A stretch of 64,000 bases of DNA from a phage. The position numbers and the translations under genes were made by a program. Location: the NCBI GenBank assembly GCA_019326865.1, contig GCA_019326865.1_4101.1, one strand, 5' to 3'. How positions within the stretch are numbered: position 1 is the stretch's first letter; every line of letters starts with the position of its first letter. The notes beneath the pieces are model-generated. The model was not told the DNA's origin. It was given only the letters and a program-made list of their open reading frames with translations, and searched no databases. This document shows positions 8,701 to 64,000 of the stretch, piece by piece.

Positions 8701-11700
8701 CTATAGTCTGTATAAAGTATATCATTAAGTTCAATAGTACTATTTTGACGACCAATAGCTTTCCAATAAATTGAATCACGTGATTGAGATTTGATATACA
8801 ACGTCCAAATATTTTCACTATCTGTAACTCTGATGATATCACCGACTTGATAGTTTTTAGTATTTGCTTCTTCTAAACTTGTCTCTTGAATATAAGCTGT
8901 TTTACTATCATACCCAACGTCATACCAATCAGCATATGACCAGTAATGAGTCATATCTAATGATGTTCCAAGTGATTCAACATAATCACTTTGCTTAATC
9001 ATTTTATGTTGTCCCTCACCTTTATTTTCTAAAGTTATAGTAACAATATTTCCTGTATTGGCCGGGCTGTTCATTAACTGAATATATCCATTTTCATCAA
9101 AGTGAATGAAATAAACTGCACTGGTGGATAAAGGATTTGGTAGATAACCGCTGGAACTTAAAATAACAGCGTCATTTTCTTTAAATTTATCCTTTTCGAC
9201 TGCAATCACCAATTCATTATTATAAGACAATACACGGAAAGAAACCTCATTTGGGTTAACTTCTGTTGTTTTGACATTAAACACATCTTCCATAACAACA
9301 CTATTAGTGGTTATGTTTTGTGATCTATAATAATTATTAGCACTTTCTACAAAGTTTCTACGTGCTTCAATTACATTCTGGAACCAGGTTTTATTGGAGC
9401 CGATTCCATTATCAACATCTGGATATAATAAATTTATCACTGAACCTGACTTGGTAGTTTCTTGTCCTATTAGTGAGTTCCACATTGAATCCCAAATTAA
9501 TGGATTGAAGTTATAACTTTCTCCCTCTTTACACAGTTGGTACTGATCATGTTTAACAACTTCAGTGCTGTCCATATAGTAAGAAATAGTCAAAATACTG
9601 GTGTCATCATTGACTTTAAACTGCATATTACTAAGGATAAAAGAGTTTTCATTAATTGGTGCAAACCAAGGAATGTTTAACTGTGATGGATCTTTAATAA
9701 TACGTGCAATATCAGTACATGATTTAGTTCTGGTATGTAGTGGTGGTACATAAATTGTATCACGTACCCAGAAATAGTATTTTGTCACATAACTGTCAGT
9801 TGAGCTATCATATTCCAAAAATGTACTATAATTATCTTCAAGTGCAGTTCCGCTTGGAAGATACATATTATTATTTTTGTTTTTCTTAGCAACATCTTTA
9901 CAGTACTTATCCCAGTTATATGGTTCTACTGGTGAACATACCCACTCTAATACATCAATTGTGCTATGTGGCAACAAACGCCCCCAGTTGTATCGTTTGT
10001 ATTCATTAGTTGCGTCAATATCAACATTACCATCTGCGTCATAAATGGCACGAGTATAATCCAAATAAAATGCAGTGCTTGTGTTCCACCATACTTGACC
10101 TACTTTATCTGCACCCCAAGCTTGAACTAATTCGCCATTACTATTATATTGTGCAGGGTCAATTGGTGAAGTATATGTCACGTTTTGCATAGCTGCACCT
10201 GGAATAACACCATTAATTGGGTCAAAAACGTTTAGATATAATGCAGTAATATTTGTGCGTTCATCATACGTTGTTGGTCGTTCAAATAAAGTGCTCTGTG
10301 GTGCTTTAAAGCTATATTTTTTGTCAATATATTCTTGACGTTTATCAGCACTAGAAAAACGTGAAACATAACGATACAAACGTGGACGAGTAGCCGGATC
10401 AGTAAATTCAATATTAATTGAAGTATCAAATGGAACTACCATAACTTTAGAATCTTCACCAGCAGTATAATATTGACTTTCTACTGTTAATGTATCTGGC
10501 ATAAAGTTTGTTTCATCAACAAAATAATAATAATCACCATCTTCAAGTGGGATTTTATCAGTCAATGTTACTTTACAGAATTGTTCAGCGTAAATATCGG
10601 TATTTTCTATTGGTGTTATAGAAACCATTTGTACATTAGTGTCAACTAATTCAAAAATGTTCCACAAACCATTACCATCTTTAAACATCCAAACTGATTC
10701 TGGATTTTCACCTTTACCGTTAACATAAGAAATTCTGTCGTTATATGCAGTACTGAAATCTTTAGTAGTGTAAGATACTTCATCTAATGTCACTGGACCA
10801 ATGTCAGGAAGTTGGATATGTTCACTTCTCCCACTACGCATTGGAAATGAAAATTTTCCATTCGGGCGTGTAATCCAACGTGGGTCTTTACCTTGATCAC
10901 CAAAATATACAACATTATTACCATTGCCATTTGAAGTTGCGTTTTCATCAAATGACACCATTTGTGGTTGTTGTTTAAATTGGTCATTAATTAATTTAAA
11001 TTGGAGATTTTTCTTACCATCAATATTACCATATGTACCAATTTTAAATGCCCATTCTTGTAATGCTTTATACTCATCTGTGTCATATGATTTAGAAACA
11101 CGTAAAACACGTTCTAAAACTTGGTTAGTGCCTTTGTCATGAATAAATCCTTTATAAAAATCAACACGACTAACATCGCTACTAATCATACGTTGTAGAT
11201 AATCACGTGATTGGTAACCAATTAAATGACTAGATAATTCTTGTAATTGTACATCGCTTACAGGGTTTTCATTATCATAGTAATGTTGAAAATCAGTTAC
11301 TAATGTTTCAAATGAAGGAATTGTACCAGATTCTAATATAATAAAACCAGGTGCTTGTAATCTACCCGTCCATGAACCAGTAATATAACCGTACATTTTG
11401 ATTAGTTCCTGAATAGAACCATATGTTGGTTGATAGATGTAATCACCAAAAATAGTTTTATCATCAAATATAACCGCATGTTCATATGAACACAAACTTA
11501 AACGAAGTAATGCAATACGTTTATTAGAATCTAATGTTCTAACAGTGAAAATATTACCAATACGAGAAGTTTCGATTTCATATTGACGAATTCCTTGGTT
11601 ATTATCATCAAGTAATGACCATACTCCACCATTATTTTGTGCAATAGACTGAACTGAGCCAAAATCTGAACCAAATTTTGCATTTGTTGCACTTGGTGTA

Positions 11701-41231: not shown

Positions 41232-41275
41232 TATTGATTTTTGTAGAATTTATAGAATAAAAAACTTTTATACTA

Positions 41276-41301
41276 GGGACTCTTCGGAGTCCCTTTTTTT
41301 T
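41276..41301 (+). terminator. rho-independent terminator after major capsid gene
   Basis: GGGACTC-TTCG-GAGTCCC then T8. Confidence 0.85.
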
Positions 41302-41324
41302 GGTTTTTATATAACTAAAAGATC

Positions 41325-41353
41325 TTGACAGCACTTAACAATTGTAGTATCAT
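41325..41353 (+). promoter_or_regulatory. sigma70-like promoter for homing-endonuclease-like gene A
   Basis: TTGACA-N17-TATCAT just downstream of capsid terminator. Confidence 0.4.
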
Positions 41354-41387
41354 ACGTGTAAATAAAGAAAAGAACTCGGAGAAAATC

Positions 41388-42983
41388 GTGTTAGAAGAAA
41401 TCAAGAAGTTTTTATCAGAGAAAAATGTTCGTGGTGTTAAATCTGCTCTGCAAGCAAAATCTGTATACATTGAATTCCTGCGAGAGATGTTTGGTGATAT
41501 CGATCTTAATGAAATGATTTATATGGTATTGAATGATATTACTTCAGTGCCGAATGCTGAATGTGGTGACAAAGCTAAGTTTATAAGTATTACCGAAGGA
41601 TATTCTTACAAGTGCAATAAACCATTTCAAGGAAAAGGAAAATGCCTTATCTGTTGCTCCGCAGTTGCTAGGAAACGTAAAGAAACTTACAAAGAAAAAA
41701 CTGGTTATGATAACCCGGCACAGAATCCAGAAATTCAAAAGAAAATAGGGTATACCAATGAACAACGTTATGGCACTCGTATTGCTCAACAATCTGAACA
41801 AGTAAAGCAGAAATCAATAGAAACTAATATCAAAAAGTATGGCGTTGTTCATCCATCACAGTTGGAAAGTAATAAACAGCAACGTTTACAAACTGTACAA
41901 GAAAAGTATGGTATCAATAATGTATGGCAACTTAATAAAGGTCTTAGTGCACGTTATGAACAGTTTAAAACACGATTTGAACAGGATGGTAAATTTACTC
42001 TTTTAAGTGATGAATCCCATTATGATAATAGCAATGACGCAACTCATGCAATCATGCACTGGAAATGTAATGAATGTGGTAATGAGTTTGATAAAGTTGC
42101 TCTTTGCTTACGCTGCCCTAAGTGTGAACCATATTCATCCAGTACTGAAGAAGTTAATCTTTATAATTACATTACCTCTATCTATAGTGGTGTTGTTATT
42201 CAAAACAGCCGCAACATAATCAAAGGTAATGAAATTGATATTTTCATCCCAGAACTGAAACTTGGTATTGAGTTCAATGGTGAGTACTGGCATCGTGATG
42301 AAGTTCGTGGTAAAGACTATCATCAATCCAAATACTTCAAAATGAAGGAAGCAGGATACAAACTTATCACTATCTATAGTAATGAATGGTCAAATAAAAC
42401 TGAAATTGTTAAGAATCGTTTGAAAAGTTTGATTAGTGTGGATAGTAAAATCTATGCTCGTAAGTGTGAAGTTAGATTGGTTGTACATGAAGAATGTGAT
42501 AAATTTTTGTATGAACATCATATTCAAGGACCATGCCAATCATCAATCAAACTTGGACTTTACTATAATGATGATTTGGTTGCTTTGATGACATTTGGTG
42601 CACCACGATTTAACAAGCAGTATGAATATGAATTACTGCGTTATTGTTCTAAAGGAACAGTTGTTGGGGGTGCATCGAAACTGTTAAAACATTTTGAACG
42701 TATGTATCTTCCTAAATCTCTTCTTTCATACGCCGATATGAACTGGAGTACTGGTAATTTGTATGAAAAAATTGGTTTTACTTTAGAAGAAGTAACTCAA
42801 CCTGGTTATTTTTACTATGATAGAAAAAACGAAGTTGTTTATTCTCGCCATCAATGCCAAAAACAAAAACTTATTAAAAAATATAATTTTGATAGTTCTA
42901 TGACAGAGAAGGAAATGACAAAAGAATTAGGATACTTTAGAATCTATGATTGTGGTAACTTAGTTTATAAAAAGATTTACTAA
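41388..42983 (+). CDS. homing-endonuclease-like protein A: Cys-rich zinc-ribbon regions, tandem repeats, Vsr-like PD-(D/E)xK nuclease core
   Basis: IDIFIPELKLGIEFNGEYWH resembles the Vsr/DUF559 active-site region; repeats of form G..(N/H)P.Q......K........YG; own sigma70-like promoter; track start 41325 is TTG, GTG at 41388 has GGAG RBS; paralog at 62327. Confidence 0.55.
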   Translation: MLEEIKKFLSEKNVRGVKSALQAKSVYIEFLREMFGDIDLNEMIYMVLNDITSVPNAECGDKAKFISITEGYSYKCNKPFQGKGKCLICCSAVARKRKETYKEKTGYDNPAQNPEIQKKIGYTNEQRYGTRIAQQSEQVKQKSIETNIKKYGVVHPSQLESNKQQRLQTVQEKYGINNVWQLNKGLSARYEQFKTRFEQDGKFTLLSDESHYDNSNDATHAIMHWKCNECGNEFDKVALCLRCPKCEPYSSSTEEVNLYNYITSIYSGVVIQNSRNIIKGNEIDIFIPELKLGIEFNGEYWHRDEVRGKDYHQSKYFKMKEAGYKLITIYSNEWSNKTEIVKNRLKSLISVDSKIYARKCEVRLVVHEECDKFLYEHHIQGPCQSSIKLGLYYNDDLVALMTFGAPRFNKQYEYELLRYCSKGTVVGGASKLLKHFERMYLPKSLLSYADMNWSTGNLYEKIGFTLEEVTQPGYFYYDRKNEVVYSRHQCQKQKLIKKYNFDSSMTEKEMTKELGYFRIYDCGNLVYKKIY

Positions 42984-43000
42984 AATACGGGAGAATACGG

Positions 43001-43351
43001 ATGTTAACTGTATACAAATTTAACAAAGAAGAGTACTTAAAGAGTCAGTACTCAAATATAGAAATAAATGTTCCTTATGGTACGTTAGTTGGATATGATG
43101 AAGCCACTGAAACATTGTATTATAATGATGATAGATTGGATTATAGTTTAGATTCTTTCATAGAAGATATACTTAATACACAAACTGAAGATATGTTGTA
43201 TGAAGAATACATCGATCATTATAGAGAACGTATGTCGGTGCTGCATTCTGATGCTCCTGTACTAAACATAGCACAAGAACCATCGGAATTTCAGCCACAT
43301 AATCCTTTTCAACGTTTAATTGATATTGGTTTAAAATTCACTATTAGTTGA
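43001..43351 (+). CDS. hypothetical protein (116 aa)
   Basis: ORF with GGAG RBS. Confidence 0.5.
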   Translation: MLTVYKFNKEEYLKSQYSNIEINVPYGTLVGYDEATETLYYNDDRLDYSLDSFIEDILNTQTEDMLYEEYIDHYRERMSVLHSDAPVLNIAQEPSEFQPHNPFQRLIDIGLKFTIS

Positions 43352-43390
43352 TAGATAAATATCTCCATATTAATGATGGAGATTGAATCT

Positions 43391-43699
43391 ATGTCACAGA
43401 TATGTTATGTTATAATAAACTCTGCATGGCCTGACTATGTTAAGATTGGTTTCACTTCTAAATCTGAAATGACAGAGCGTTTGAGAACGTATCAGACAGC
43501 TACCCCGTTTCGTGATTTTGAAGTTTATCATGAAGTTCACTTTGAAGACGCACGTTTAGCTGAAAAAGAGATACATAAAAGGCTTAAACAAATGAATGCA
43601 ACTAGACAACCAAACACGGAGTGGTTTAAAATGTCTAAAAAAATAGCAGCAAACATCATTGATTCTGTGTGGGATGATATGGATAACGACTTGCTATAG
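43391..43699 (+). CDS. T5orf172 / GIY-YIG-like domain protein
   Basis: CYVIINSAWPDYVKIGFTSKSEMTERLRTYQT...EWF matches the T5orf172 pattern as recalled; 8-bp inverted repeat ATCTCCAT/ATGGAGAT overlaps the RBS. Confidence 0.55.
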   Translation: MSQICYVIINSAWPDYVKIGFTSKSEMTERLRTYQTATPFRDFEVYHEVHFEDARLAEKEIHKRLKQMNATRQPNTEWFKMSKKIAANIIDSVWDDMDNDLL

Positions 43700-53585: not shown

Positions 53586-59936
<6,351 letters not shown>

Positions 59937-60024
59937 GTAAACCGTCAAAGGAACAATGAAGTTTCTAAGACAATTGAAGCCAATTAACAAATAACAAAGA
60001 AACCCAAAATCAAGGAAGAAATAT

Positions 60025-61083
60025 ATGAAATCTCTAGCTGAAATTCGTGCACACCTAAAAGCAGAACAAGAAAAAGCAGAAGCACAAAAGAATGGTACAT
60101 TCACTGGTGAGCGTAAAGCTGATTCGTTTCTAGCTTTCTGGAACGTACCTTACAATGAACCACTAAATCTACGTTTTCTACCAGATGCTGATGAGTCCAA
60201 CCCATTCTTCTGGCGTGAACGTGACATGATCAACCTAACATTCAATGGTGTAGTCGGTATGCACACTGATAAAGTAACCGTACAAGTACCTTGTAATGAA
60301 ATGTGGGTTCCTAAATCTTGTCCGGTTCTGAAAGAAGTACGTCAATGGTTCCAAAGTGCGAATGAAACAGGGAATGAAGAACTAAAAGCAATGGCAGGTC
60401 GTTACTGGAAGAAAAAAACTTATCTAATGCAATGCTTTATTGCACCAGATAGTGTTGCAGTAAAAGACGACATTGCACCAGAAAATCCAATTCGCCGTAT
60501 TCTAGCTAACAAAGATATCTTTGATAAAGTTAAATCTATCCTACTAAACCCAGGTATCAAAGAATCCCCAACTCACTACGTTCAAGGTCGTGATTTTGGT
60601 ATTGTTAAAACTAAGAACGGTGGTGGATATAATAGCTACGACATGTCACAATTCTCCATGTCAGAGCGTCCACTAAACGAAGAAGAACTAGCAGCAATCG
60701 AAAAATATGGTCTATTCAATCTAAATGATTTTATGCCAAAACAACCAACTCCAGAAGAGTTGAAAGCAATCGAAGAAATGTTCGAAGCATCAGTAAATGG
60801 TGAAGCATATGATCCAGCACGTTGGGCATTTGCATATCGTCCAGCAGGTGTACCAAAGCCTAACACTGGAACTACCACTGTCACTGAATCAAAACCAACT
60901 CCTGCTCCAGTACAACAAGAGTCAACACCTGCACCAGTAGCACCTACTGTTCCAGTTACACCAGCACCACAAGCTGCTCCTGTAACCCCAGTCGCTACAC
61001 CAGCAGCATCTACGACTGAAGCACCAAAAGAACAACTATCTGCATCTGCACTAGTTGCTCGTTTGAAACAACAAGGTAAGTAA
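60025..61083 (+). CDS. single-stranded DNA-binding protein gp32-like
   Basis: LNLRFLPDADESNPFFW resembles the gp32 motif as recalled; H/C cluster MHTDKVTVQVPCNEMWVPKSCP (possible zinc site); Pro/Thr/Ala-rich tail. Confidence 0.65.
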   Translation: MKSLAEIRAHLKAEQEKAEAQKNGTFTGERKADSFLAFWNVPYNEPLNLRFLPDADESNPFFWRERDMINLTFNGVVGMHTDKVTVQVPCNEMWVPKSCPVLKEVRQWFQSANETGNEELKAMAGRYWKKKTYLMQCFIAPDSVAVKDDIAPENPIRRILANKDIFDKVKSILLNPGIKESPTHYVQGRDFGIVKTKNGGGYNSYDMSQFSMSERPLNEEELAAIEKYGLFNLNDFMPKQPTPEELKAIEEMFEASVNGEAYDPARWAFAYRPAGVPKPNTGTTTVTESKPTPAPVQQESTPAPVAPTVPVTPAPQAAPVTPVATPAASTTEAPKEQLSASALVARLKQQGK

Positions 61084-61102
61084 TAGTTTTTTGAAAAGTT
61101 AA

Positions 61103-61130
61103 GGGGCAACGGAGTTTGCCCCGTTTTATT
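61103..61130 (+). terminator. rho-independent terminator between gp32-like and uvsX
   Basis: GGGGCAA-cggagt-TTGCCCC then GTTTTATTT. Confidence 0.7.
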
Positions 61131-61153
61131 TCATAAAATTCAAGGAGAGAATT

Positions 61154-62275
61154 ATGAAAATGACAAGTGGTTTTGCGAACATTCTTAAAAACAGTACTGG
61201 TAGTGTAAAAAAGAATACTGGTGTTAGTGTTGGATTTCATGATCCAGATACATGGGTTAGTACTGGTAACTATGCACTAAATTACCGTATCAGTGGTTAT
61301 TTTGACCGTGGTATCCCACTAGGTAAAGTAACTATGTTTGCTGGTGAATCAGGTAGTGGTAAATCTTTTATTGTATCCGGTAACATCGCACGTGAAGCTC
61401 AACAACAAGGTATTTTTGTTGTAATGATTGACACAGAGAATGCTTTGGATTCAGATTGGCTACAAGCTCTTGGTGTTGACACTTCTGAAGAAAAACTTCT
61501 TAAAGTTAATATGGGTATGATTGGTGATGTAGCCAAATTCACTTATGAATTTATTGAAGGATATCGCAAAGAGTACGAAAATACACCTAAAGATGAACGC
61601 CAAAAAGTATTGTTCATTATCGATTCGATTGGTATGCTTAATACTGAAGTATCTAATGATCAAATGAAGGCTGGTAATCTTAAAGGTGATATGGGACATA
61701 AACCTAAGCAGCTAAAAGCATATATTACTAACTGTGTGAATTCTATTGGTTCACTAAATATTGGAATGGTTTGTGTGAACCATTCGTATGAATCACAGGA
61801 TATGTTTAATCCAGATCCTAAAGTGTCTGGTGGTAGTGGTTTGATTTATGCATCATCAATGGTGATTGCAATGGGTAAACTAAAACTAAAAGAAGATGAG
61901 GATGGTAATAAAACTTCCGATGTGAGTGGTATTCGCTCCAAATGTAAAGTTATGAAAACTCGTTATAATAAACCATTCGAGGAAGTCGAGATTAAGATTC
62001 CTTGGGATAAAGGTATGGACCCGCGTAGTGGTTTGTTGGATATGTTTGAAAAATATGGACTTATTGTTAAATCAGGTAACCGATTGATGTATGTTGATAT
62101 CGACACTGGTGAGCAAATCTTGAAATACCGCAAAGAATGGATGCGTAACGATGATTTATGTTTGGATTTGGTAATGCATCAATTTAAACGTCACCCACTG
62201 ATTGAAGAAGTCAAAGAGGAAGAAAAAGGTGATGAATCTTTTGGTGTAGATAGTTCAACTGATAGTACTGAATAA
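61154..62275 (+). CDS. uvsX: RecA-like recombinase UvsX
   Basis: Walker A GESGSGKS, VNHSYESQDMF and KGMDPRSGLLDMF match T4 UvsX segments as recalled. Confidence 0.9.
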   Translation: MKMTSGFANILKNSTGSVKKNTGVSVGFHDPDTWVSTGNYALNYRISGYFDRGIPLGKVTMFAGESGSGKSFIVSGNIAREAQQQGIFVVMIDTENALDSDWLQALGVDTSEEKLLKVNMGMIGDVAKFTYEFIEGYRKEYENTPKDERQKVLFIIDSIGMLNTEVSNDQMKAGNLKGDMGHKPKQLKAYITNCVNSIGSLNIGMVCVNHSYESQDMFNPDPKVSGGSGLIYASSMVIAMGKLKLKEDEDGNKTSDVSGIRSKCKVMKTRYNKPFEEVEIKIPWDKGMDPRSGLLDMFEKYGLIVKSGNRLMYVDIDTGEQILKYRKEWMRNDDLCLDLVMHQFKRHPLIEEVKEEEKGDESFGVDSSTDSTE

Positions 62276-62288
62276 TGATATGTTATAT

Positions 62289-62317
62289 GAATGGCCCGTA
62301 TGGGTCATTCTTTTTTG
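62289..62317 (+). terminator. rho-independent terminator after uvsX
   Basis: GAATGGCCC-gtat-GGGTCATTC (one G-T wobble) then T6. Confidence 0.6.
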
Positions 62318-62326
62318 AGGATGTGT

Positions 62327-63931
62327 ATGATTGATATATCCAAATTATATAATATGATAAAAGACATTCCCCATCCTAATTCTCGTAAAAAAATACTAAT
62401 GGGGGAAATTTCCGAAGAAGATATGATGGAGTTCGGAACAACTGAATTAAAGCAGATTGATTATTGTATAATGAATAAATTAAAACATGTACCATTAGCA
62501 CCGTGCGGGGAAAATAAAAAATACCATAATGGAAAATATTTGAATGTATGTGAAAAATATAAACTTGGTGACAATCATTCATGTATAGTCTGTCATGAAA
62601 ATAAGACAAAAGAAACATTATCTAAAATGAAGAAAACTTCTTTATCTAAATATCAAACTGAATTTCCTAATCAGTCCATTGATGTAAAAAGAAAGATACG
62701 AGAAAATTCTAATTTTACTGAAGATGAAAAAAACGCAATTAATGAAAAGAAAAAAGAAACATCATTGAAACAATTCGGTACTGAACATCCAATGAAGAAT
62801 AGTACTGTTAAGTTGACACAAATTCAGTCCAGAAAAAAGACACAAGAGCAAACTAACAACAAAAGAATTAAAACTTTAATGCAGAAAAAAACATTAAATG
62901 TTTCTGAAAATTTGGATAAATCAAAATATGAAATTGTTGAATTGCGATTGGGGACTAATGTAAAAAGTACATTCAGGTGTTTACAGTGTGGACAACAATT
63001 TGATGCATTAAGTCATTGGGGATGTAAAGTTGTTTACTGTCCACAATGTGATGTTTCACCTATGCGTTCTAATATGGAAAATGATGTTGTATCTATCATA
63101 AAAGAAATAGAACCAACTATTGATATTGAACTTAATAATAGAAAAATCATAAAACCAAAAGAAATAGATATATATTTGCCTAAGTATAATTTGGGTATAG
63201 AAGTTAATGGAATGTACTGGCATTCTGATAAATTTAAGTCAGAAAACTATCATCAAGATAAAGTTAAAGCTGCTATGTCATCTGGAATGAAATTATTAAC
63301 AATTTATGATTATGATCTTTCAAAAAACAAAGATGTAATAGTTTCAATGATAAAAAATTCAATGAATAAATCTTCTTTTAATGTTTATGCAAGAAAATGT
63401 GAAATTAAAGAAGTACCTAAAGTTGAAGAACGTAATTTCCTAAACACCTATCATATTCAAGGATTTGTTGGTTCAAATATTTGTTATGGTTTGTATTATA
63501 ATTGCGAGTTAGTATCATTAATGTCTTTTGGTAAGCCAAGATTTAATAAAAATTTTGAATATGAAATTATACGATTTTGTTCAAAAGGTAATGTTGTTGG
63601 TGCAGCAGGGAAGTTATTAAAACATTTTGAGATAACTATCAAGCCTAAGTCATTGATTACATATGCTGATTTACGATATGGATATGGTAAAACTTATGAA
63701 AAAATAGGTTTTGAATACAAATATATTACTAAACCTGGATATTTTTATGTTAATGGAAAGGGTGATGTGGTTACTCGATATCAAGCACAAAAACATAAAC
63801 TTCTGAAGAAATACCCAGAATATCAAAATGAGACAAACATTACTGAATATGATATAATGGGGTCTGAAGGATATTTAAAGATATATGATTGTGGAAACGC
63901 TGTGTATGTGAAGGAATACAACAATGAATAA
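62327..63931 (+). CDS. homing-endonuclease-like protein B (paralog of 41388-42983)
   Basis: Same architecture: CxxC pairs, IDIYLPKYNLGIEVNGMYWH nuclease motif, conserved C-terminal domain; ATG 62327 with AGGA RBS just after the uvsX terminator. Confidence 0.55.
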   Translation: MIDISKLYNMIKDIPHPNSRKKILMGEISEEDMMEFGTTELKQIDYCIMNKLKHVPLAPCGENKKYHNGKYLNVCEKYKLGDNHSCIVCHENKTKETLSKMKKTSLSKYQTEFPNQSIDVKRKIRENSNFTEDEKNAINEKKKETSLKQFGTEHPMKNSTVKLTQIQSRKKTQEQTNNKRIKTLMQKKTLNVSENLDKSKYEIVELRLGTNVKSTFRCLQCGQQFDALSHWGCKVVYCPQCDVSPMRSNMENDVVSIIKEIEPTIDIELNNRKIIKPKEIDIYLPKYNLGIEVNGMYWHSDKFKSENYHQDKVKAAMSSGMKLLTIYDYDLSKNKDVIVSMIKNSMNKSSFNVYARKCEIKEVPKVEERNFLNTYHIQGFVGSNICYGLYYNCELVSLMSFGKPRFNKNFEYEIIRFCSKGNVVGAAGKLLKHFEITIKPKSLITYADLRYGYGKTYEKIGFEYKYITKPGYFYVNGKGDVVTRYQAQKHKLLKKYPEYQNETNITEYDIMGSEGYLKIYDCGNAVYVKEYNNE

Positions 63932-64000
63932 ACCTTGGCATTGGATTATCAAAGATGATAAATCTAAAATTATTGAAATGATTGAGTTCTTTAACAAAGA
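63924..64000 (+). CDS. hypothetical protein, 5' fragment (runs off window)
   Basis: ATG 63924 overlapping preceding stop, GAAGGAA RBS; reads MNKPWHWIIKDDKSKIIEMIEFFNK. Confidence 0.3.
   Translation, partial: MNKPWHWIIKDDKSKIIEMIEFFNK

Follow-up and report, generated by a model that had tools for sequence, protein, structure and literature searches.

The phage contig GCA_019326865.1_4101.1 was analysed as one stretch of 64,000 nucleotides (nt), referred to here as the window, from an Asteriusvirus-type jumbo coliphage whose relatives include ph0011, UE-S1, PBECO4 and 121Q. Between its recombination genes uvsX and uvsY lies an open reading frame (ORF) that we interpret, with a probability of roughly 80%, as a homing endonuclease gene that is free-standing and belongs to the Hef-like branch of the Vsr-like/EDxHD family; a 1652-bp cassette carries it at the point where uvsX and uvsY otherwise overlap. 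The gene is a newly found member of this already known Hef-like family, and its best annotated phage homolog is 38% identical. A first-pass annotation of the same DNA, made from the sequence alone, had already proposed a mobile homing gene at this position, and that reading is supported by the presence or absence of the gene among related phages, by a diverged block of sequence linked to it, by divergent alleles at the same site and by matches to known families. The features of the locus to which the following analysis refers are:

62327..63931, + strand: Hef-type homing endonuclease ORF, 534 amino acids from the likely start (the 99% identical protein P0001 also has 534)
62279..63930, + strand: inserted cassette of 1652 bp (boundaries ±1 nt), from the uvsX stop to uvsY codon 2, defined by comparison with empty sites
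62023..62278, + strand: diverged 3′-terminal ~258 nt of uvsX, linked to the gene; candidate co-conversion or recombination tract
62289..62316, + strand: terminator-like hairpin within the cassette, with a 9-bp stem and 4-nt loop (stem-loop 62289-62310) followed by T6
62317..62321, + strand: Shine-Dalgarno-like GAGGA, 5 nt before the ATG at 62327
62275..62334, + strand: vestigial uvsY start (TAATG overlap with the uvsX stop), opening a 19-codon ORF
63925..64000, + strand: rebuilt 5′ end of uvsY, running past the end of the window (MNKPWHW... compared with MKPWHW... in relatives)

The ORF placed at 62289-63931 by the first-pass annotation was borne out, its start being 2 nt off: the longest frame in the ORF listing of the window runs from 62291 to 63931 on the + strand and encodes 546 amino acids. 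The first ATG of this frame, at 62291, falls inside the terminator-like hairpin, and the true start is likely to be the ATG at 62327. We adopt this start because GAGGA stands 5 nt before it and because the gene call for P0001 yields exactly 534 amino acids. Upstream lie the UvsX/RecA-type gene (61154..62275, Pfam RecA) and a gene for a protein resembling single-stranded DNA-binding (SSB) proteins (60025..61083). The frame downstream begins MNKPWHWIIKDD... and, as had been noticed, its ATG (63925) overlaps the TAA of the endonuclease gene (63929-63931; ATGAATAA). This frame encodes UvsY; it is so annotated in relatives, and the full-length product of locus L003, a closely related carrier of the gene, passes Pfam UvsY. 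No group I intron was detected around the gene by Rfam at E<=1, the sole match being a chance snoRNA, and the gene is therefore free-standing: it is borne by neither an intron nor an intein, and its insertion is intergenic, after the stop of uvsX and before the start of uvsY. A sigma-70-like promoter match at 63830-63858, within the 3′ end of the gene, was considered as a driver of uvsY and rejected, as it is not conserved in L005, a more distant carrier; promoter-like matches across the whole region are fewer than in shuffled sequence.

Comparison with related genomes locates the insertion precisely. In a megablast search with positions 60000-64000, the best 24 Asteriusvirus records each match in two pieces that together cover 58% of the query and leave out the ORF. 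We inspected the junction itself in eight sequenced relatives and one metagenomic contig, the other listed records being judged by the two-piece gap alone. Synteny at the inspected junctions agrees with the mobile-gene proposal, the gene being absent to the nucleotide from 8/8 relatives and from the metagenomic contig. At all the inspected junctions the stop of uvsX and the start of uvsY overlap as TAATG, as annotated in ph0011, PBECO4, UE-S1, 121Q, E9.1, SP27 and Turkey3. The empty site of relatives reads GAGGAATAATGA followed directly by AACCTTGG, with alignments placing the insertion between the two, and the filled site in the window reads ...GAATAATGA, then the cassette (TATGTT...GAATA), then AACCTTGG. 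The 3′ end of the cassette thus supplies a new start codon for uvsY (MNK... in place of MK...). The old uvsY ATG is kept at 62275-62277, and its 19-codon ORF crosses the hairpin to reach a TGA 5 nt beyond the endonuclease ATG; it is a speculative suggestion that this short frame could couple translation of the endonuclease to that of uvsX. The terminator described upstream of the ORF corresponds to a real hairpin (hairpins followed by a T-run number four in the 3-kb region, compared with 1.0 ± 0.9 in shuffles), but it is part of the cassette and not the ancestral 3′ end of uvsX; relatives have no terminator at this junction because uvsX and uvsY overlap.

Apart from the window, the gene was found at this junction in the three loci L003, L004 and L005, in each case immediately upstream of uvsY. 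The encoded proteins are 99% (P0001, L003), 48% (P0002, L004) and 44% (P0003, L005) identical to the product of the window ORF. In L005 the neighbouring proteins are far better conserved than the endonuclease: UvsX and UvsY are 94% and 88% identical to those of the window lineage, compared with ~45% for the endonuclease. The stop and start overlap as they do in the window (YVKEYKNE* / MSRPWHW), and the orthologous gene is preceded by an analogous hairpin, T-run and GAGG. We also observed that L004, a more distant phage contig, carries two tandem Hef-like genes immediately upstream of uvsY (positions 2-1878), whose stop and start overlap as GAATAATGAAA, a string identical to the Asteriusvirus uvsX/uvsY empty site. 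No relatives of the protein were found in IMG/VR, and a DNA pattern from the 5′ end of uvsY matched only 121Q in IMG/VR and one gene-less contig in JGI metagenomes.

The second line of evidence comes from a nearly isogenic pair of phages. L003, which carries the gene and is 97.7% identical to the window, and ph0011, a nearly identical phage without it, differ only in the cassette, in the ~258 nt at the 3′ end of uvsX (~21% diverged) and in a short patch near the 3′ end of uvsY. The pair shows 0 mismatches in 860 nt of uvsX and in kilobases on each flank, and 57 mismatches in the 265 nt adjoining the cassette. Comparison of the window with ph0011 reveals the same tract, beginning at 62023; the window and L003 differ from ph0011 at ~57-59 of ~265 positions. 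Within the tract, ph0011 has 0-2 mismatches to PBECO4, UE-S1, 121Q, E9.1 and SP27. Most of the changed codons are synonymous, and the uvsX tract is by its sequence a diverged functional allele and not a product of decay. A three-way map of informative sites in L003, ph0011 and PBECO4, with positions counted from the last nucleotide of uvsX in ph0011, reads as follows:

-1101 to -282: 96 variable sites, L003 = ph0011
-255 to +2: 58 variable sites, L003 alone differs (ph0011 = PBECO4); one extra site, -18, has L003 = ph0011
+75 to +290: 5 variable sites, mostly L003 = ph0011
+368 to +455: 14 variable sites, L003 alone differs at 12

No diverged tract is visible immediately to the right of the cassette. 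The second carrier-specific patch, ~+368 to +455 nt into uvsY of L003 and thus past the end of the window, lies near the uvsY 3′ end, with ~380 nt of sequence identical to ph0011 between it and the cassette; discontinuous co-conversion or an independent exchange may have produced it. By analogy, patchy exchange of this sort around the cassette would be of the kind made by double-strand-break repair with co-conversion, for which the surroundings of homing genes in phage T4 provide precedents (PMC2988022). As a separate observation, the most variable stretch between the window and L003 is the Pro/Ala/Thr/Val-rich C-terminal tail of the SSB-like protein (window 60750-61000), with 30 differences in 250 nt, indels included.

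These comparisons bear on a purely vertical history, in which the gene would be ancestral between uvsX and uvsY, one of a pair of paralogs, and repeatedly deleted in relatives with no endonuclease-driven mobility. Three diverged lineages do have a gene at the same site, and the mosaic pattern is compatible with gene loss in ph0011. Repeated deletion would, however, have had to restore a perfect TAATG overlap with no scar in every gene-less relative inspected, and it accounts poorly for alleles of the gene that are 45-48% identical between flanking proteins at 88-94%, for the sharp recombination boundaries that hug the gene, and for a family that is multi-copy and patchily distributed over unrelated phages, with 11-12 places per genome in Campylobacter phages. 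We regard it as the least probable of the explanations weighed here, with only a very slim chance of being correct.

The predicted protein matches the family expected of a homing enzyme. An AlphaFold2 (AF2) model built on 121 homologs is confident throughout (mean predicted local distance difference test score, pLDDT, of 93.8) and divides into three parts:

62327..63061, + strand: N-terminal region, amino acids 1-245 (AF2 model; cysteine positions)
63062..63364, + strand: Vsr-like PD-(D/E)xK nuclease domain of the EDxHD type, amino acids 246-346 (E251, D281, N294, H299, D311)
63365..63928, + strand: Mom-like GNAT domain, amino acids 347-534

The N-terminal region is modelled as a helical bundle with long helices bearing K-x-K-x-T-x4-(Y/F)-G repeats, together with two Cys4 zinc-ribbon-like sites, C60/C75/C86/C89 and C218/C221/C238/C241. 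The repeats are of the Pfam DUF7487 type, and DUF7487 itself matches the second endonuclease gene of the window (see below) and many homologs. No NUMOD or helix-turn-helix (HTH) motifs were matched in the window protein, and a scan of the protein against NCBIfam gave no match. Within the family the N-terminal region varies most, in keeping with its presumed role in the model as a DNA-binding and specificity module.

The catalytic domain has a Vsr-like PD-(D/E)xK fold. The protein matches the solved EDxHD homing endonuclease I-Bth0305I, and residues E251, D281, N294, H299 and D311 align with E170, D196, N208, H213 and D222 of that enzyme. Amongst the 121 Hef-like homologs, D281, H299 and the neighbouring K312 are invariant and residue 251 is E in 106/121. 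Two PHROG families of 'homing endonuclease' are matched with high significance (PHROG 3339, E=5e-107; PHROG 559, E=1.5e-89), as are the Campylobacter phage 'Hef-like homing endonuclease' (E about 1e-70) and the RaK2 'hef' product (E=2e-68). Homology to Hef-like proteins covers either the full length or the C-terminal two-thirds, with 44-46% identity over the nuclease and GNAT domains. Hef-type phage endonucleases have been placed in the EDxHD (Vsr-like) family (Taylor et al., 2011).

The state of the protein also speaks to whether the gene is a decaying or domesticated remnant that no longer cuts and is kept since its deletion would upset uvsY expression. Such a remnant could account for the rarity of the gene-carrying state among sampled genomes and for the physical coupling of uvsY translation to the endonuclease ORF, and the window and L003 copies are separated by 5 synonymous and 6 non-synonymous codons, not enough to demonstrate purifying selection. 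Yet the ORF is full-length and intact, all the EDxHD positions are filled, every residue invariant over the 121 homologs is kept, and both the confident model and the shared architecture of the orthologs at 45-48% identity argue for a maintained enzyme. We therefore hold a remnant to be highly improbable.

The C-terminal region that the first-pass annotation had picked out in an endonuclease-like ORF is indeed conserved, but it corresponds to a Mom-like GNAT domain, the nuclease lying in the middle of the protein. Of the homologs, three score above the gathering threshold of Pfam Mom (PF25680); the window protein itself has no Pfam Mom match. A profile-profile alignment to the Mom family alignment (E=9e-6) pairs H376, E413, R416, D448, R450 and Y457 with H58, E108, R111, D149, R151 and Y159 of Mom. 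In the 121 homologs H376, E413, R416 and Y457 are invariant, D448 is present in 109/121 and R450 in 80/121. Mutational analysis of Mom has shown that R111 and R151 are essential, that mutation of D149 greatly lowers activity and that activity is drastically lowered in H58 and Y159 variants (PMC13219725); R111 is specific to Mom within the GNATs (PMC7261163). The essential S124 of Mom maps ambiguously, to G421, to the invariant G425 or to residue 428, which is Ser in 82/121 homologs and Gly in the window protein. The loop before helix 3 of the GNAT domain reads V-x-G-G/A-A-S/G-K-L-L, nearer to the canonical acyl-CoA-binding GNAT motif than to the PRNSES(124)R of Mom. The most likely role for the domain, as judged from its sequence, is that of a DNA-binding or base-flipping module, or of an accessory catalytic module. 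Tentatively, the Mom-like GNAT domain could be catalytically active, a possibility that we doubt, and Hef-type enzymes would then be bifunctional, combining a site-specific nuclease with a DNA (amino)acyl-transferase. If so, the enzyme could modify adenines at or around its own target, either to confer self-immunity or to license cleavage, or cutting could be gated by a cofactor such as acyl-CoA or aminoacyl-tRNA, and this would be a mode of immunity or regulation undescribed for any characterised family of homing endonucleases.

A Mom-like domain next to a nuclease also invites interpretation as a restriction-modification-like conflict module, in which the Mom-like domain would hypermodify adenines in the phage's own DNA and the restriction endonuclease (REase)-fold nuclease would attack unmodified host or competitor DNA. 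Fusions of Mom domains to REase-fold nucleases have been described in jumbo phages, five of them in PA5oct, and read as modification-restriction pairs (Iyer et al., 2021; PMC7824862). Two points speak for such a module: the top structural match of the window protein in BFVD is a PA5oct 'putative homing endonuclease' (E=9e-41), and the equivalents of six Mom residues are conserved in a GNAT domain that is the most conserved part of the family. This interpretation leaves unexplained, however, the presence or absence of the gene at one site, the linked block and the ~45% identical alleles at the same junction; moreover, a diffusible modifying enzyme would shield both genomes in a mixed infection. 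The unmapped equivalent of S124 (a Gly in the window protein if it is residue 428) and the lack of a Pfam Mom match in the window protein also count against it. Homing predicts the combination seen at this locus, one exact site with a linked block and diverged alleles, and general restriction does not. We consequently judge the conflict module unlikely, noting that it and homing are not mutually exclusive. In the literature searched we found no instance of 'Hef-like' used together with GNAT or Mom.

The window contains a second copy of the gene near the capsid genes:

41388..42983, + strand: Hef-type endonuclease paralog, located after the major capsid gene and its terminator (BLASTP, PHROG)

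A tblastn search within the window finds exactly two copies. The paralogy asserted by the first-pass annotation is far above background (BLASTP, 189/532 identities, 36%, with 56% positives and E=1e-98), and all the shared motifs that it quoted, YARKCE(I/V), GLYYN, FG(K/A)PRFNK, KLLKHFE and IYDCGN, were found. Similarity is present in the C-terminal region as described but is not limited to it, since the two proteins align over nearly their full length, from residue ~48 onward; the N-terminal third is more diverged, as had been claimed, yet can be aligned. At the capsid-side site (window 41232-43000) UE-S1 has the same gene, in DNA 98.6% identical over 4.5 kb, and ph0011 has a 65% identical allele, with raised divergence on both sides: over the final ~130 nt of the capsid gene to the left and over ~290 nt to the right. 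In JP4 the site is taken by an unrelated gene that contains a zinc finger, is annotated as an endonuclease and has a strong promoter-like sequence of its own; in PBECO4 the site is empty. The capsid-side paralog thus acts like the uvsX/uvsY copy, with variable occupancy and diverged flanks. A target shared between the empty sites of the two paralogs was considered and rejected as too weak: the similarity between their flanking sequences, which had been suggested as a route to the target, is only marginal (local alignment score 29 compared with 23.4 ± 2.1 in shuffles, reached by 4/200 of them). The similarity is gapped and pairs the uvsX/uvsY junction with window ~43075-43127, a stretch ~130-180 nt beyond the capsid-side insertion point and inside the gene that follows the first Hef-type copy. 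Two genes past that copy, 43373-43699 (+) encodes a 108-amino-acid ORF with a T5orf172/MUG113 (GIY-YIG-related) domain, which may be another nuclease-derived element.

That the enzyme cuts DNA, where its target lies and what the GNAT domain does are inferred from sequence, and the mechanism that we propose is accordingly a prediction. In a mixed infection, the variable N-terminal region would bind a site in or beside the uvsX 3′ end of gene-less genomes, and the Vsr-like domain (E251, D281, N294, H299, D311) would cut the gene-less genome. Recombination dependent on UvsX and UvsY would then repair the break with the carrier genome as template, copying in the cassette and neighbouring uvsX sequence. 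Immunity of the carrier would come from its ~21% diverged ~258-nt uvsX tract, from the split junction or from both. The hairpin would limit read-through from uvsX and hold expression of the endonuclease low.

Several observations weigh against this scheme. The left edge of the tract (-282 to -255) is also where ph0011 shifts from 11% to ~0% divergence from PBECO4, and a single recombination event deleting the gene from ph0011 would explain this edge more simply than two independent boundaries. Simple one-sided co-conversion upon gain of the gene was therefore dropped as an explanation, and the event may have been a gain or a loss, the same boundary being a mosaic boundary in ph0011. Under gain or loss, the edge indicates a recombination hot spot near window 61996-62023, plausibly the place where the enzyme cuts. 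In addition, the target site is not readable from the sequence, and cleavage is a prediction here and for close relatives; the last D of the EDxHD motif (D311) is unconserved in the Hef-like subfamily (D in 18/121 homologs, N in 56/121); and the insertion sites of the two paralogs are alike only marginally. Finally, it is the GNAT domain and not the nuclease that is most conserved in the family, which is not what pure homing predicts, and a pure homing model leaves the conserved Mom-like active site unexplained.

As a selfish gene the element is of a type routine in phages, and its value for annotation is modest. Its interest lies in the near-isogenic comparison, since the window and L003 differ from ph0011 by little apart from the gene and the exchanged segment is bounded within tens of nucleotides. 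The pair yields a concrete prediction of cutting, at the uvsX 3′ end or the uvsX/uvsY junction, along with ready substrates. Two literatures meet at this locus, one on Hef-like/EDxHD homing endonucleases and the other on Mom-REase modification-restriction fusions, and a member with conserved Mom-type active-site residues that behaves as a site-specific mobile gene sharpens the question of what the GNAT domain does. The cassette also separates two translationally coupled genes, uvsX and uvsY, and ties translation of uvsY to the endonuclease instead; homing would depend on both of these recombination genes.

Probable elements of another type lie in the same neighbourhood. The large terminase subunit (55855-58512, +; 885 amino acids) contains a LAGLIDADG_3/Hom_end domain at amino acids 283-363, ahead of Terminase_6N and corresponding to window about 56700-56945, and judging by these domain matches the insert is probably an intein that encodes a homing endonuclease of its own. 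From annotation coordinates, the terminase has ~545 amino acids in PBECO4 and ~781 in ph0011. In L003, at 8947-11526, outside the window and past uvsY and an exonuclease gene, a UvsW-like helicase of 859 amino acids has LAGLIDADG_3 at amino acids 370-419; its orthologs in L004 and L005 have 494-506 amino acids, and the insert is probably a second intein of the neighbourhood.

Amongst known systems, the closest to the window gene are Hef and the Hef-like genes (Hef of phage U5, the Hef-like genes of Campylobacter phages and hef of RaK2), which likewise are free-standing beside essential genes for DNA metabolism or structural proteins and whose products belong to PHROG families in common with the window protein. 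They differ from it in insertion site (here uvsX/uvsY), in host clade (here Asteriusvirus) and in their N-terminal regions. U5 Hef is reported to cleave nrdB (reviewed in PMC2988022); annotations and Taylor et al. (2011) are the basis for the putative tie of the window protein to U5 Hef. I-Bth0305I (PDB 3r3p), the EDxHD prototype, shares the five aligned motif residues and, like the window gene, is associated with a phage recA-family gene. It is, however, encoded in a group I intron and has a NUMOD/HTH N-terminal part, a C-terminal nuclease and no GNAT domain, an architecture that the window protein does not share: its gene is free-standing, and the protein has zinc ribbons, DUF7487-type repeats and an extra 190-amino-acid Mom-like domain after the nuclease.

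The T4 genes segF, segG and mobE resemble the window gene in genetic behaviour, being intergenic beside a conserved essential gene and, as is proposed for the window gene, showing co-conversion of the flank and presumed distant cleavage in the neighbouring gene (PMC2988022), but the GIY-YIG and HNH folds of SegF, SegG and MobE are unrelated to the Vsr-like PD-(D/E)xK fold of the window protein. Mom of phage Mu (PDB 8bv8) is a GNAT-fold, Gly-tRNA-dependent adenine-modifying enzyme, six of whose residues have aligned, conserved equivalents in the family of the window protein. Where Mom has an HTH-like DNA-binding insertion, the window GNAT domain has an insertion after the core with the invariant basic residues R484 and K489; furthermore, Mom stands alone, whereas the window GNAT is a domain of a nuclease fusion, and modification activity is known for no member of these fusions. 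The Mom-REase fusions of jumbo phages such as PA5oct belong, by the top BFVD structural match, to the same family as the window protein, and to their interpretation as modification-restriction pairs (Iyer et al., 2021) the window locus adds population-level evidence of site-specific mobile-gene behaviour.

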